Shown one piece after another: positions 2,606-64,000 of a DNA stretch of 64,000 nucleotides. Source of the DNA: Perkinsus olseni (taxonomy: Eukaryota); NCBI GenBank assembly GCA_013115125.1, contig JABANN010000118.1:1-64000 (forward strand). The letters run 5' to 3'. Below the pieces are notes generated by a model, which was given only the letters and a program-made list of their open reading frames with translations, made no database searches and was not told the DNA's origin. A program made the translations under genes and the position numbers. Position 1 is the first letter of the stretch, and every line of letters begins with the position of its first letter.

Positions 2606-4979
2606 TTAGTGCGCGTTGCGGGCGAGTTTAACCCTGACTCTGTGCCATGAATTGTTGACCAACCCTCGGACGTTCCAAATAGTTACCGGCCTTTCTGGTT
2701 GAGTATTATTGGCATCATCGATGGCTCGGACAATTATCTGACAAGAATCTTTGCTGTACGCACGGGAAGATACGCTGTGGCCCGACCTCAACCTCCTGCG
2801 TCTCCTCAGGTGGCCCTACATCGATGAGAGATGACTCAGGCCCGCCTGGCGGTATCGATACCACTGCCGACCAAAGTACCCACGACCAAGCGCGGCCGAA
2901 ACTGCGAGAAAAAATACCGCTCGTTGGGATAGAGCCCGGGGCCTTTTCCGCCTTACTCCCCTCTTCCTTCTGGATTTTCCTCCATCATCGCCGGACTCCA
3001 GTTTCTGCCTCCGTCGACAGAGACATCAACCGCTTTCACCCGACGACCACCGCCAGAGTAAGCGTAGCTACGAGGAGGGCAAACTACTCCTACCAGGCTT
3101 CGAACCCGAGACCTTACCCTTTGCATACAAACTCATTCTGCTCATCCAACGACACAGTCGCTCCTTCCACCGGATGGCAGATTGCGCTGGTCACCGGCAT
3201 AACTTGCAGGGCATCAGCATCTTCCGCACCGTCCTCGTTATGTTCCTACCAACCTTGCTTCCGCGCGCCACGAAATTAAACCGCACAGACACTGCCCACT
3301 TGTAAAAATTTATAATCGCTCTTTTGCCAAAATGAGGGACTTTCTTCCCTCTCCAAACACACTCTTGACAACCACTTGACATTCCTGAGGATATCTTCTT
3401 CCCACCCAGGTTCGATCCCCGGCAAGGGTACCTAGCTCCGGCCAATCCCGGTGCCACAACTCTAACAGGCCAGCCATGATCGACTGGCAGGGGCTCTCCG
3501 TTCATCTCAAGCGCTAGTATAACATCGCCGTTCTGACTCAATGCCTACAGCAGATCCGGTCAGGGCCGATACACTCGTAGTGACCTACCTTGGCTGCCGG
3601 TACGCTAGCGCCGTAGTTCTGCTGACCATCGCCATCTCTACCCCAGAATTGAACATGACCTTCAGAGGCCAGCTCTTCGGGTATCCTCTCATCGCCATAG
3701 ACATACTGCAGTACTTCACTCAAGCGGGGTCCCGTCCACGTGGCACTGGATATGGCACCCAGTGTCCAGTTCAGACCTGTGAGCAATCCGTGAGCATCTC
3801 ACACAATGCTAGTTCACTCACCTTTCACTGGTGGTTTTCCCTCGAGCCTTCGGTTGAACTCAGACCTCCGATTGCCCGCGCATTGAATGACGGCACTGAC
3901 GGTCCGCTGGGGGAACTTCTCTCTCAACTCATCAACGGTGAGCTCAACAGGCTCCTTCAGGCCCACACCTTCGAACCGCACCACGGGCTCTTCGGGAGGA
4001 GGAGGGACAGGAAAATGATTTCGAACGAAGAAGAGCTCGTTGGGGGTCTCGAATGAATCCACGAGGAGCTCGAGGGGCGCTTCGGCGTTGCATGGCTGCT
4101 GCGATCGGAACTGCAAGGCCTGTAAGAACCACCTGGCCGGCTCGGCGAATGGTCGGTGACGTCTTACGGGATGGCGATGATCTGGCTCAAACCGAAAAGG
4201 GTCATCGTCGCTCTTCTGAGACTGACTACTGGCTCGGGCGAAATCTTCAGGATCGAGATTGCCTAGGATCAGGCTAAGATACCATCCCCTCAGCTGAGGC
4301 TTCATCCACCTATCCTCATTGCTTCGAGCATATGGCTAATCTCTGGAAGTTGCAAATGCTGACGATAGAGTCGCCAAAAGTCGTCCACCGCCCCTCCTGA
4401 ACAACAGCAGAAATCGCAAGGCAAAGCGGACGGCTCATCGGCGACCTGCTGCCATTAGAATTTTCTCCTTCCCTCCGGGGTGCTCCTTGACGAAGCCCGT
4501 GATATCGTATACGCCCTCCTTGAAGGTCACCCAAACGCTCAGCCCCTCTTTGTTGTGCTCCGCCACCTAACCAGTCACCATCCGACGCCACACGCAGCCC
4601 ACGCCCCCCACCTCCGAGGCCTTGTAGGTCCTCAAGCCTTTAACAGGTTGACCGAAATTCGGATGGAACTTCTTCTCGTCATCAATGGTTGCCTCTTCGC
4701 AACGCGAGTGGCCTGAGCGCTGCGAATCGCAGTACAACAGGGCGGCGGAGGCGGCCGCTGCAAAGACTAACGCTGCTGACGTGCGGCGGTAAGATCCACC
4801 TGACGGAGCAGCGGTTGCAAATGTGGATCCAAGCTGGACCCTATACCATCACTCAGTTCAGCGTACGGCATGCCATCAATGATGCCGACGCCTAAGGTGC
4901 AACAAGACGGCGGCTGCTTGGAGATAGTCGAGATGGCCCGACAGATGGCCGGACGGACGAAGCCTGACCATCGGTTCAT
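2606..4979 (-). CDS. SUOX: Sulfite oxidase (cytochrome b5, Moco-binding and dimerisation domains; multi-exon)
   Basis: [21 protein letters not shown] (b5 heme motif), [79 protein letters not shown]. Start codon uncertain; the N-terminus looks like a targeting peptide. Confidence 0.93.
3068..3117 (-). other. Intron containing a tRNA-like variable loop, T-arm and B-box (sense)
   Basis: gtAAGGTCTCGGGTTCGAAGCCTGGTAGGAGTA...tag. Confidence 0.65.
3385..3431 (+). other. Intron of the minus-strand sulfite oxidase containing an antisense tRNA 3'-half
   Basis: The + strand reads CCCAGGTTCGATCCCCGGCAAGGGTA; removing the intron restores GAR-NVKWL. Confidence 0.7.
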
Positions 4980-5373
4980 GTGACGAGAGGACAACAAAAA
5001 CTGACGAGTGTCAAACAGTTGCGGCCAGATGCCCTCGAGCGACCCCAGGGACGGTGCTCCTCCAGCCCGGAGGGTACCACCGTTGGCAGAACGGTGGTAG
5101 AGAACCCTCAAGACATTGGCTATTGTCTACACCGTGGGACAACCTTCCCCTAAATCAGAAGACTGAGAGATAGTAGTTCAGACTGATACGTAGTTCCAAT
5201 GCTAACTCAAGGGCGTCATTGACTACCGAGTCGATGAGGTGGCCGTGCATGGGAGCAGAAACGCGACCAACACCACGTCCGAGAGGGAGTTGCTAGAAAC
5301 GATCACAACAGTGGCAGTAAAGCGGAGGATAACACTCCGGTACAGGAACAACGCGAGACGAGTTCTCCTTCAA

Positions 5374-61279: not shown

Positions 61280-64000
61280 ATGTCGAAGCTCGAGGCGACT
61301 GCGGTGGAGGAATCGAGGTAGATCGCCGCGGAAATCCGTGGAAATCCGTCAGAGCTCGGATTTTGTGGCGCGTGACTCAGCCTCGACCGCAGCGCACGCT
61401 CCCGAGAGGACGAGGAGGATCGGAGTTCCACATCGCGCAGTTCAGGCCGAGTGCCGCATTATAGCACGCACGGTCATCAGCATCACCGGTAAACGCGTGG
61501 ACGTTTTGCAAGTGAGCAAGAATTGTTCCCAGATTTCCGACGAAGTCACTGGGTGGTTATGCTGATGTTGCTCCTATCAGCGAGTGGGAGAAAGAGCCGA
61601 AGTACCGGACGAAATCGGAAATGTGAGCGGTGAAGATGGGCCGGGTTGGAGTATCTTAGGTCGAAGGGTGCAGGACACAGAGCAGCTCGGCTTTCAGGTT
61701 GCACCAGAGGCGGGCGAACTTGATACCTGACATATCCTACGACGTGGATGGAGATGGTGTCGTCGGAGCCCGAGATTATTTCATCGCTAAAAATTTTGAT
61801 GAGGATCGTGATGGGAGACTGAACCGGAAGGAGCGGCAACGGTGCATGGAGGCCCTCGCCAAGGGATGGCTGGATAGGTGATAAGGCTGGCAATTTCGTG
61901 GCGCGCGGTCGGAGTATGCTTCCTACAGGTTCTCGTTTGGTCATGACCAGGCGGGTTCAAAGAGGCCCTTCGCAGTGCAGCAGCGCAGGGGGAAAATCTT
62001 CACGCAAGACAGTTCATTCGAACTTGGGGAAACGTAGGAACGCCAATTTCGTGGCGCGCGGTAATTACAACCCTGGCAGATATCCAGCCCACCCGATTAG
62101 CAAGGTAATCCCCTTCCACCATACAAAAACGGAGTTGGCAGTGGATCGGAGAAATGAGATGAAGAATGCTGCATCGGAACTGTGAGTTGACCGTCCCCTT
62201 GCGGCTGTGTTAGTAACGGTTGTATCCGGTGGCGCCCCGACCTCCTTGCATACGTTTTCTCAGGTATGACCGGTGGGAGCGGAAGAATCCGGCTATGGTA
62301 GCAGAGCAACCGCCGTCCAAGGATAATTATGTTGCTCATCCGAAGTAGGGGTACTTAGAGGTGGATTCAATTTTTTCAATTTTTCCATCAGAATGACGCA
62401 TATTGGAGAGAGGGCGGCGGCTGATAATGAGGCTTCGAGGGTTTGTGCTGGCCTAATGCCGGTCAACACCCACCTCAATCCTGACAGGGAGTCCAAAGCT
62501 TTAAGTGAGCGGTCGCCCAAGGTTGCGCTGTCCGACGCCTCGAGTGCTCCTCCAGGCACGGCATGGGTGGAAGCGCCTGTGGTGAGGACTCGATCGCAGT
62601 TGGTGGAGTTGCGGAGAGAAAAGTTGAAGTGCGATCTCGATGAGAGTAGGAATAAAGGTACTGAAATTAAAGGGAAAATATTAATTTTGATTTCGTCGAT
62701 CCGCCTCAGGAGAGGCGGAATTTATCCCCTTGAGCGTTCGAGCAGTCGCGAAAGAGGCCGCGGTGAGTTAGCGATGGAGGTCGTTTCCTGATGGAGAGTG
62801 TCTACTGTTAGGCACATGAATTTCGGAAGGGGGAGGGGGCGGAACCCAAGACGAAGACTCTGCTGGATTTGCAGCGTCGTAGGGACCGGATTGAACACAA
62901 TCTGGCCAATTGCCGACGGAAGCCGCGGAAAATGCCAGCGTAGGCGAAGCGGATCTTTCTTCGTGGCAGTGACTCGAATGGTTGAATTCCGTTCAGGTTT
63001 TCGGAACAGGACCAGCCGTGGTGGACATTGGGTGAAGAACCTAGGAAGAAGCCTAGAAGTGAGGATAGTGGCTAATCCCGCTCGAGTTTGATGTATAGCA
63101 GGACCTCAGTCAGTTAGAGCACCGTGCTTGGAAGGCGGTGGTCGTGGGTTCGAGGCTCGCACCCATCATGCATATCCATCTTCCTTGGTACGTCGCTTTC
63201 GCTCACAGGTCAGCGAGACCGAGGGGGATCGATCAAGTCGAGGGTAGCGGAAGTTACATTCAAAGTCACCGATCCCTTACCAGAACACCTCCGCCCTAGG
63301 GTAAGCATGATTACTCTGAATGAGGGATAAGACAACCGTCGTCACGCCAGAAACAGCCGGAGCGCGAGGACCCGCCCATCATAGGCGATGTGAAGCCGAA
63401 GTCGAACAAGCCTCTCTTCCCTGAGTAGCCGCTCGGCAACAGACTAATCGCCGTAACGACTTTTGTCAGGGGTCGGAGCAAGACGGTGAAGAGGTGGACT
63501 ACTGATATCATCGAACATGGCGCCTTGCGCAACGGCAAGAGGCTCTTCGATAGCTTGCTGCCATGCCAGGTAATGGTCGGATGACGGCGGCTGGTCTTAG
63601 TGTAGAGCTGCTGGGCTTAGGTCTACACGAAGGACTTCGCTCCGCTGGAGGTTTGGAGTAGTTTTGATATCATTCGTCATGACGCTCTGAAGAAGCAGGC
63701 GATAGCGCGGAGTAGCGCCGCACCGACTGTTAGTAAGAAAGCCCTGGGCTCTCTGGGTGAGATCCCCGGTGTTTAGGCAAGTTGTCATCGGCCATGATAA
63801 GTTCGAATCAGCGGAGCGATGCAGCGGCGGTACCGAATAACTCAGAGACATCAGCGGATGCCGAGGTGAGATCATGCCTGGCTCTCGCCGAACGAGGATA
63901 CATCCAGCAGGCTCGTCGGCTTAGCGCCGTGGCGTATGGGAGGCAACGAGGAGAGCAGCAGCGATCTGTCCTAAGTGGGAATGCTAACGCCATCAGCTTC
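61280..64000 (+). CDS. Hypothetical EF-hand-like protein (multi-exon; bounds uncertain)
   Basis: YDVDGDGVVGARDYFIAKNFDEDRDGRLNRKER, two DxDxDG loops; further exons separated by short GT-AG introns. Confidence 0.65.
63124..63208 (+). other. Putative intron containing a tRNA-like T-arm
   Basis: GGTCGTGGGTTCGAGGCTCGCACCCATCA; the stem GTGGG/CTCGC pairs with G-U. Confidence 0.55.

Follow-up and report, generated by a model that had tools for sequence, protein, structure and literature searches.

How new spliceosomal introns originate has been a question for a long time; introners resembling transposons, tandem duplication and the repair of breaks with filler DNA are the sources known so far. Here we analyzed a 64,000-nt stretch of Perkinsus olseni DNA (contig JABANN010000118.1, positions 1 to 64,000; hereafter the window), in which at least seven real introns consist mostly of a decaying copy of a tRNA gene's 3′ part. 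A search of the full-text literature, in which subscription journals are mostly uncovered, for tRNA-like or tRNA-derived spliceosomal introns, for introners derived from tRNAs or from short interspersed elements (SINEs) and for Perkinsus introns returned no such description, and searches on broader terms gave none either.

Several described systems share some of the features of these introns. In filler-DNA intron gain, as in Daphnia and in introns derived from organelle DNA, the new intron is recognized by short direct repeats at its borders or by its organelle origin. The resemblance is that coding sequence acquires a short foreign piece that is then spliced as an intron, with no transposon needed; the carrier introns of the window differ in that they lack border repeats and in that their source is tRNA genes. 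Extra TFIIIC (ETC) sites are few, mostly intergenic and defined by measured TFIIIC occupancy. Like the ETC or B-box-only TFIIIC sites of yeasts, the introns described here have, in their sequence, an isolated B-box with neither an A-box nor a tRNA gene, but the Perkinsus sites are intronic, retain further tRNA features and are known from sequence alone.

Introners are interpreted as introns gained through insertion that then decay to ordinary ones (PMC3609843; PMC7789003). In introner and introner-like elements (Micromonas, Aureococcus, dinoflagellates and some fungi), as here, a recognizable sequence is common to the introns of unrelated genes. However, introners are copies from a single mobile family or a few of them, terminal repeats or target duplications are frequent among them, and the fungal ones exceed normal introns in length, whereas the Perkinsus introns hold the 3′ half of several different tRNAs, are of ordinary length and have neither repeats nor duplications. 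None of the introner traits sought in the carrier introns, namely terminal repeats, target duplications and a length or fold stability above the regular, was found, and the largest copy had a folding z of -0.37.

Intronic SINEs derived from tRNAs also place tRNA-related B-box sequence within introns in both orientations. A SINE, however, has a whole head with A- and B-boxes, a body, a tail, target duplications and a family consensus, whereas six of the seven strong copies in the window hold only the 3′ half. The initial annotation of the window had proposed tRNA fragments or tRNA-derived SINEs as the source, with a genome-wide set of intronic TFIIIC-binding elements as the alternative. The tRNA origin is upheld by a covariance model trained on the introns, by stem pairing and by the discriminator A (see below), but the SINE was not supported, given the missing A-box in six of the seven copies, the lack of target-site duplications, the lack of a common flank, body, tail or family consensus, and the differing acceptor strands.

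In the same genus, PMC3706591 reports Dada DNA transposons of P. marinus that cut tRNA genes at the A-box, alongside hugely amplified tRNA genes (five tRNA types with more than 500 gene copies in P. marinus). A tRNA pseudogene in one of the introns (63090–63167) has ~6 extra bases in its A-box region, as a further likeness. Dada elements differ in being 4.7–11 kb long and in inserting into tRNA genes, and nothing indicates that they carry tRNA halves into protein genes, so that they are a lead only.

tRNA 3′-half blocks in short spliceosomal introns

The window is eukaryotic nuclear DNA of P. olseni, an alveolate that parasitizes clams, with a G + C content of ~53% and abundant very short introns. 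Its translated exons are 100% identical to annotated P. olseni proteins (P0001, P0121), and the proteins of P. chesapeaki and P. marinus match them at lower identity. Seven strong GT-AG introns in six genes hold a block resembling a tRNA 3′ half, which reads, in order, a variable-loop GGTC, a T stem, a TTCRA loop with an intact B-box, a 7-nt acceptor strand and a discriminator A (Table 1). They amount to about 1 in 20 of a set of 142 introns (9,873 nt, the remaining window being 53.9 kb), the majority of which are predictions of our own crude gene model and ~25 of which are backed by RNA or homology; all counts are within this one 64-kb stretch. The gene model was trained without a 5,445-codon open reading frame (ORF) because the composition of that ORF is atypical, and the retrained model still fuses genes and misplaces introns (3246/3385, 19985, 58906, 60645 and 63059), which were corrected via RNA or homology. 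The initial annotation had reported tRNA 3′-half blocks in GT-AG introns of unrelated genes, and all eight sites that it listed read as described, with the donor of one revised below.

These introns are spliceosomal GT-AG introns, and the support for them differs by site, coming from RNA, protein continuity, frame logic or annotation. RNA contigs of runs X7 and X8 contain the GT..AG joints 58905->58980, 60644->60701 and 58786->58840, and the spliced Cwc21-like and Rab6-like messages have complete reading frames. The P0001 annotation and a non-Perkinsus sulfite oxidase (P0004) are both continuous across 3068–3117 and 3385–3431, and splicing out 3385–3431 rejoins the motif GAR-NVKWL, a restoration that the initial annotation had pointed out. 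The neighboring 2902–2956 is called an intron by the P0001 annotation only. Introns 18907–18960 and 19117–19161 are backed by P0123 and by the P. chesapeaki protein P0125. If 26968–27015 were retained, an in-frame TAG would result, and the gene model calls the same borders exactly; the exons upstream of 26968 match Pfam RRS1, and the short exons flanking it gave no Pfam match. The public P. olseni and P. chesapeaki models P0127 and P0128 merge the Cwc21-like, Rab6-like and EF-hand-like genes into one protein (57900–64000).

The blocks are far more frequent in introns than expected. In the whole window, the B-box word GGTTCRANNCC has seven matches against 0.97 expected, a number reached in 0 of 100 whole-window shuffles; one match is in a real tRNA, one is exonic (20032) and five are in the claimed introns. 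A T-arm rule (5-bp stem with at most one mismatch, G53/C61 and a TTCRANN loop) gives nine whole-window matches against 2.46 ± 1.6 expected, two being the real tRNAs. The pattern GGTCNNNGGTTCRANNCC, which combines GGTC with the B-box, gives seven matches at up to one mismatch against 0.3 expected, six of them intronic and one coding (18488–18505), and the search of the whole window with it found no match beyond predicted genes and introns.

For an intron-only test, 500 dinucleotide shuffles were made of each of the 142 introns. Within introns, five exact B-boxes were observed against 0.086 expected, six matches to GGTC plus B-box against 0.02 and six to the T-arm rule against 0.25, and no shuffle (0/500) attained the observed count for any of the three rules. 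The comparison with shuffled introns that had been put forward in the initial annotation thus came out far above its controls. The 53.9 kb outside introns gave one exact B-box, one GGTC plus B-box and no T-arm match. When all 7-mers were compared between introns and the rest of the window, GGTTCGA ranked first, occurring in 9 introns against 0.79 expected (P = 1.6e-7). Two candidates were discarded: 18488–18505 is coding sequence and no tRNA-like intron copy, and the T-arm match at 20029–20045 is coding, not intronic, according to the P0122 annotation and a P. chesapeaki protein.

Descent from tRNAs and anatomy of the copies

We built a covariance model (R2) from the seven intron copies alone and scanned the whole window with filters off. 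The top matches outside the training set were the 3′ halves of both real tRNA genes of the window, at 29.6 bits (E = 1.6e-7) and 18.8 bits (E = 9e-4), and the following match scored 14.9 bits. Since R2 finds real tRNAs though it was trained on introns only, this test of tRNA-likeness is not circular. The outer T-stem pairs and the discriminator base lay outside every search pattern. Across the six intronic pattern matches, 14 of the 18 cells formed by the three outer T-stem pairs are paired, where chance gives 0.376 per pair (P = 6e-4), and all six have an A as discriminator, whereas the exonic look-alike has one of three outer pairs and a G at the discriminator position. C48 and A73 are invariant in all nine aligned sequences, and TTTT lies within 14 nt downstream in four of the six intronic pattern matches, terminator-like as behind real tRNA genes. 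The likeness to genuine tRNA 3′ halves therefore extends past the B-box: the intron blocks descend from tRNAs and are not chance B-boxes. The acceptor strands differ among all copies, indicating that several tRNAs were sources. The copies form a decay series, with strong copies at 26–38 bits and weak intronic relics at 8–13 bits.

The blocks are not working tRNAs. ARAGORN and Rfam (gathering score 29 bits) call only the genes at 28274–28347 and 28414–28486 as functional tRNA genes, and the Rfam tRNA model, applied to the whole window and to two sub-stretches covering four introns, reported none of the half-sized blocks. ARAGORN at lowered thresholds made hundreds of calls and was uninformative. 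The anticodon of the tRNA gene at 28274–28347 reads ATC (Asp by the table); Asp tRNAs normally carry the anticodon GTC.

Relative to the host gene, five strong copies are in sense and two in antisense orientation, which, with acceptor strands that all differ, bears out the earlier description of both orientations and different tRNA types. Whatever its orientation, the block is found beside the 5′ splice site. In sense copies, the donor is 8–20 nt ahead of the T stem and a T-rich trailer extends in the direction of the acceptor. In antisense copies, the discriminator A and the C that follows it are complementary to the donor GT. The abutment of the antisense tRNA 3′ end on the GT donor, likewise described before, was seen at 3385–3431 and 18907–18960.

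The ten carrier introns (seven strong and three weak copies) are 45, 47, 48, 50, 53, 54, 55, 56, 74 and 150 nt long, eight of the ten falling within 45–56 nt, and the median length of all 142 introns is 54 nt. The block alone occupies ~35 nt. Behind the block of 58906–58979 lie 28 nt of unrelated sequence, and the T stem of 60654–60688 pairs fully only on the assumption that one base was lost from its 3′ strand. In three genes, weak copies with a spoiled B-box adjoin strong-copy introns in the same orientation (three adjacent pairs; permutation P = 0.015, a value that leans on our own labeling of the weak copies). No target-site duplication, and no microhomology beyond 4–5 nt, was found at the intron borders. 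The carriers have no common sequence outside the tRNA core, the longest exact pairwise match being 16 nt and inside the T arm, and an upstream A-box is absent in six of the seven strong copies. The depth of the DNA runs is at baseline over the bins holding copies, at a bin width of 377 nt.

The fullest copy lies in the EF-hand-like gene. The initial annotation had placed its intron at 63124–63208, but the donor at 63124 found no support, and P0126 and the P. marinus protein P0129 fit 63059–63208 instead. The RNA contigs of X7 and X8 list no joint at 63059–63208, where depth is low. The segment 63090–63167 is a nearly whole tRNA-like sequence comprising D, anticodon (loop TGG) and T arms. The Rfam tRNA model aligns with 63103–63166 through the D, anticodon and T arms (model positions 9–63) at 16.2 bits, which is below its gathering score of 29; tRNA is the best of all families, with E = 0.53 for this small search. 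The fold of the pseudogene is no better than that of shuffles (z = -0.37). The ~6 extra bases are in the A-box region (63090–63130), the Dada insertion site reported for P. marinus in PMC3706591, and are maybe a footprint and maybe a coincidence. Another public annotation translates straight through the tRNA-like segment of 63059–63208; two public models of this locus read tRNA-like segments differently, and knowing the pattern would improve gene calls.

Table 1 Carrier introns, tRNA genes and other recurrent intron words in the window
Positions	Strand	Feature	Block and details	Support or score
2902-2956	-	Sulfite oxidase intron, 55 nt	Degenerate sense copy 2913-2947, then T6 run	10-11 bits, E = 0.4-1.6, not significant alone
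3068-3117	-	Sulfite oxidase intron, 50 nt	Sense block 3083-3117; donor GT 8 nt ahead of T stem	32.5 bits
3385-3431	-	Sulfite oxidase intron, 47 nt	Antisense block 3398-3432 on + strand, without GGTC; 3′ end A-C-C-T abuts donor	26.6 bits
18907-18960	-	Intron, 54 nt, in gene upstream of and joined to kinesin motor	Antisense block 18927-18961 (+ strand); 3′ end abuts donor	P0123, P0125
19117-19161	-	Intron neighboring 18907-18960, 45 nt	Weak antisense copy 19122-19156	13.1 bits, E = 0.09
26968-27015	+	Rrs1 intron, 48 nt	Sense block 26972-27006, then TTTT and AG	36.8 bits
58787-58839	+	Cwc21-like gene intron, 53 nt	Degenerate sense copy 58804-58838	RNA joint; 8.3 bits, E = 6, weak
58906-58979	+	Cwc21-like gene intron, 74 nt	Sense block 58917-58951, then T5 run	RNA joint
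60645-60700	+	Rab6-like gene intron, 56 nt	Sense block 60654-60688	RNA joint
63059-63208	+	EF-hand-like gene, probable intron, 150 nt	Nearly whole tRNA pseudogene 63090-63167	P0126 and P. marinus P0129
28274-28486	+	Two genuine tandem tRNA genes, 28274-28347 and 28414-28486	In-window reference for tRNA 3′ halves	64 bits and 61 bits
3264-3277		AATTTCGTGGCGCG match		
5987-6000		AATTTCGTGGCGCG match		
7210-7223		AATTTCGTGGCGCG match		
19554-19567		AATTTCGTGGCGCG match		
30956-30969		AATTTCGTGGCGCG match		
32729-32742		AATTTCGTGGCGCG match		
61359-61372		AATTTCGTGGCGCG match		
61892-61905		AATTTCGTGGCGCG match		
62045-62058		AATTTCGTGGCGCG match		
5430-5495		GGCGGAGCGAAGC intron	Sense	
16663-16709		GGCGGAGCGAAGC intron	Antisense	
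32351-32396		GGCGGAGCGAAGC intron	Antisense	
60269-60423		GGCGGAGCGAAGC intron	Sense	

Possible origins of the carrier introns

We infer that the insertion of tRNA-gene fragments made these introns, an explanation that we favor and to which we give somewhat better than an even chance. Because the carrier introns are of ordinary length and the block takes up ~35 nt of ~48, the fragment largely is the intron. Furthermore, since none of the copies lies outside predicted genes or introns and there is little spare room, the most likely course is that an inserted fragment became the intron. Either pieces of tRNA genes or copied unprocessed tRNA transcripts would insert into transcribed genes and would survive only where the spliceosome removes them, the insertion itself turning into an intron. 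Splice signals in the window are slight (GT, then R, R and G/T; a pyrimidine-rich run of ~8 nt; YAG), the typical intron is ~48 nt and no clear branch word was found among the window introns. Such minimal signals would ease the immediate splicing of inserts, and in sense copies the T-run behind the tRNA gene could double as the pyrimidine tract. Once inserted, the copies would undergo neutral decay. The tRNA genes reported in very large numbers for the genus Perkinsus would be their source, and the candidate insertion routes are the use of filler DNA when breaks are repaired or reverse transcription of pre-tRNA.

A wider form of this explanation, which we regard as conceivable though short of probable, is that new spliceosomal introns in Perkinsus are regularly made from fragments of its massively amplified tRNA genes, in an introner-like process that has no transposon and is fed by genes of RNA polymerase III (Pol III). 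If the proportion of seven strong copies among 142 introns holds genome-wide, thousands of introns began from tRNA 3′ halves, and halves of tRNA genes would add a new intron source that accounts for a countable share of the short introns in one lineage. As the parent sequences would be known, each such intron could be dated by its decay, assigned to its parent and scored across Perkinsus species. Intron gain would also be tied to the amplification of Pol III genes, and possibly to the tRNA-targeting Dada transposons. In a bolder form, the surviving intronic B-boxes may still recruit TFIIIC inside genes.

Several points weigh against gain from tRNA-gene fragments. The intron borders bear no insertion signature in the form of a target duplication or microhomology. 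The B-box is the best-kept part of the copies, as selection through TFIIIC would give, and this is partly an effect of ascertainment, the copies having been found by their B-box. The excess of sense over antisense copies (5:2), which is not significant, hints at a constraint at the RNA level, and the A-C-C-T ends of the antisense copies are either a relic of CCA or merely the AG/GT of the splice junction. In addition, other motifs recur in the introns of the window, which could reflect a general placing of short conserved words in introns.

It is possible, but in our view unlikely, that there was no gain and that the tRNA fragments landed in pre-existing introns, serving as safe harbors, which were later trimmed to the usual length. 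The decayed copies fit such a history, as do the two longest carriers: the 150-nt intron 63059–63208 has flanking sequence on either side of a whole pseudogene, and the 74-nt intron 58906–58979 has its unrelated 28 nt past the block. However, insertion into a 48-nt intron predicts ~85 nt, whereas eight of the ten carriers are 45–56 nt, and trimming must have spared the insert every time. The sequence beyond predicted genes and introns also offers more neutral target than the introns with their 9.9 kb, yet it holds no copies.

Rather improbable, in turn, is that the copies were co-opted as TFIIIC-binding B-box elements without Pol III transcription, ETC-like, which would mark or organize chromatin within genes. 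The B-box is exact in five introns and nearly exact in two more, six of the seven copies have no upstream A-box, as in ETC sites, and both orientations are found; other short DNA words are likewise repeated in introns and close to gene starts, so introns may carry DNA-level signals. Nevertheless, the outer T-stem pairing, C48 and the discriminator A are kept though TFIIIC does not need them, which points to recent descent. Weak copies with a ruined B-box in the same genes (2913–2947, 19122–19156 and 58804–58850) argue against a general constraint, and no copy lies between genes, the usual place of such sites.

A further explanation, to which we attach very little probability, is a mimic of tRNA acting at the RNA level. 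In that case, the T-arm hairpin and acceptor strand in the pre-mRNA would serve a tRNA enzyme, through RNase Z cleavage guided by a 5′ tRNA half or through T-loop modification, and would mark unspliced RNA or excised introns. RNase Z cleavage of targets resembling a 3′ half can be guided, the strong copies show the 5:2 sense excess and the block is always beside the 5′ splice site, but two good copies are antisense, the stems are mismatched, one of them with a likely base loss, the short introns contain no matching 5′ acceptor strand and even the whole pseudogene folds at z = -0.37. Finally, chance matches selected by eye would explain the two coding look-alikes (18488–18505 and 20029–20045), which are consistent with the 2–3 T-arm matches expected by chance, and would suit the E-values of the weak copies (0.1–6), but are already refuted for the seven strong copies, with a negligible probability, by the shuffles (0/100 and 0/500 reaching the observed counts), by the retrieval of real tRNAs with the intron-only model R2 and by the first rank of GGTTCGA in the unbiased 7-mer test.

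Other recurrent words and features of the window

Another word that recurs is AATTTCGTGGCGCG, in many cases with TGACG or CGG behind it; it has nine matches with up to two mismatches against 0.23 expected. Five of these sites are in short introns of unrelated genes, with exact common runs of up to 19 nt, two closely precede gene starts and one falls within conserved coding sequence. This word may act as a signal at the DNA level or mark a further intron family, and an Rfam search of two introns of this type (family B) found no known RNA family. A third common intron word, about GGCGGAGCGAAGC, gives exact matches of 12–15 nt between the introns of unrelated genes.

At 54722–54758, 58416–58474 and 61004–61046, a short dispersed repeat raises the DNA depth of runs X9 and X10 7–10 fold. 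Many contigs continue from these spots into unlike sequence, and two of the three are inside long introns (58361–58548 and 60798–61071). Downstream of a papain-like protease gene is a perfect 24-nt inverted repeat (56426–56473), and the DNA runs X9 and X10 (~6% diverged, with 847 differences) are without 52 nt at 56397–56448, overlapping this repeat. The ORF set aside in training the gene model occupies 36288–52625 of the + strand, as a single intronless frame of 5,445 codons in otherwise intron-rich surroundings. Ala, Gly and Thr codons abound in this frame, matches to bacterial Ig-like (Big_5) and Kelch were found, and its predicted product looks like a giant surface or adhesion protein.

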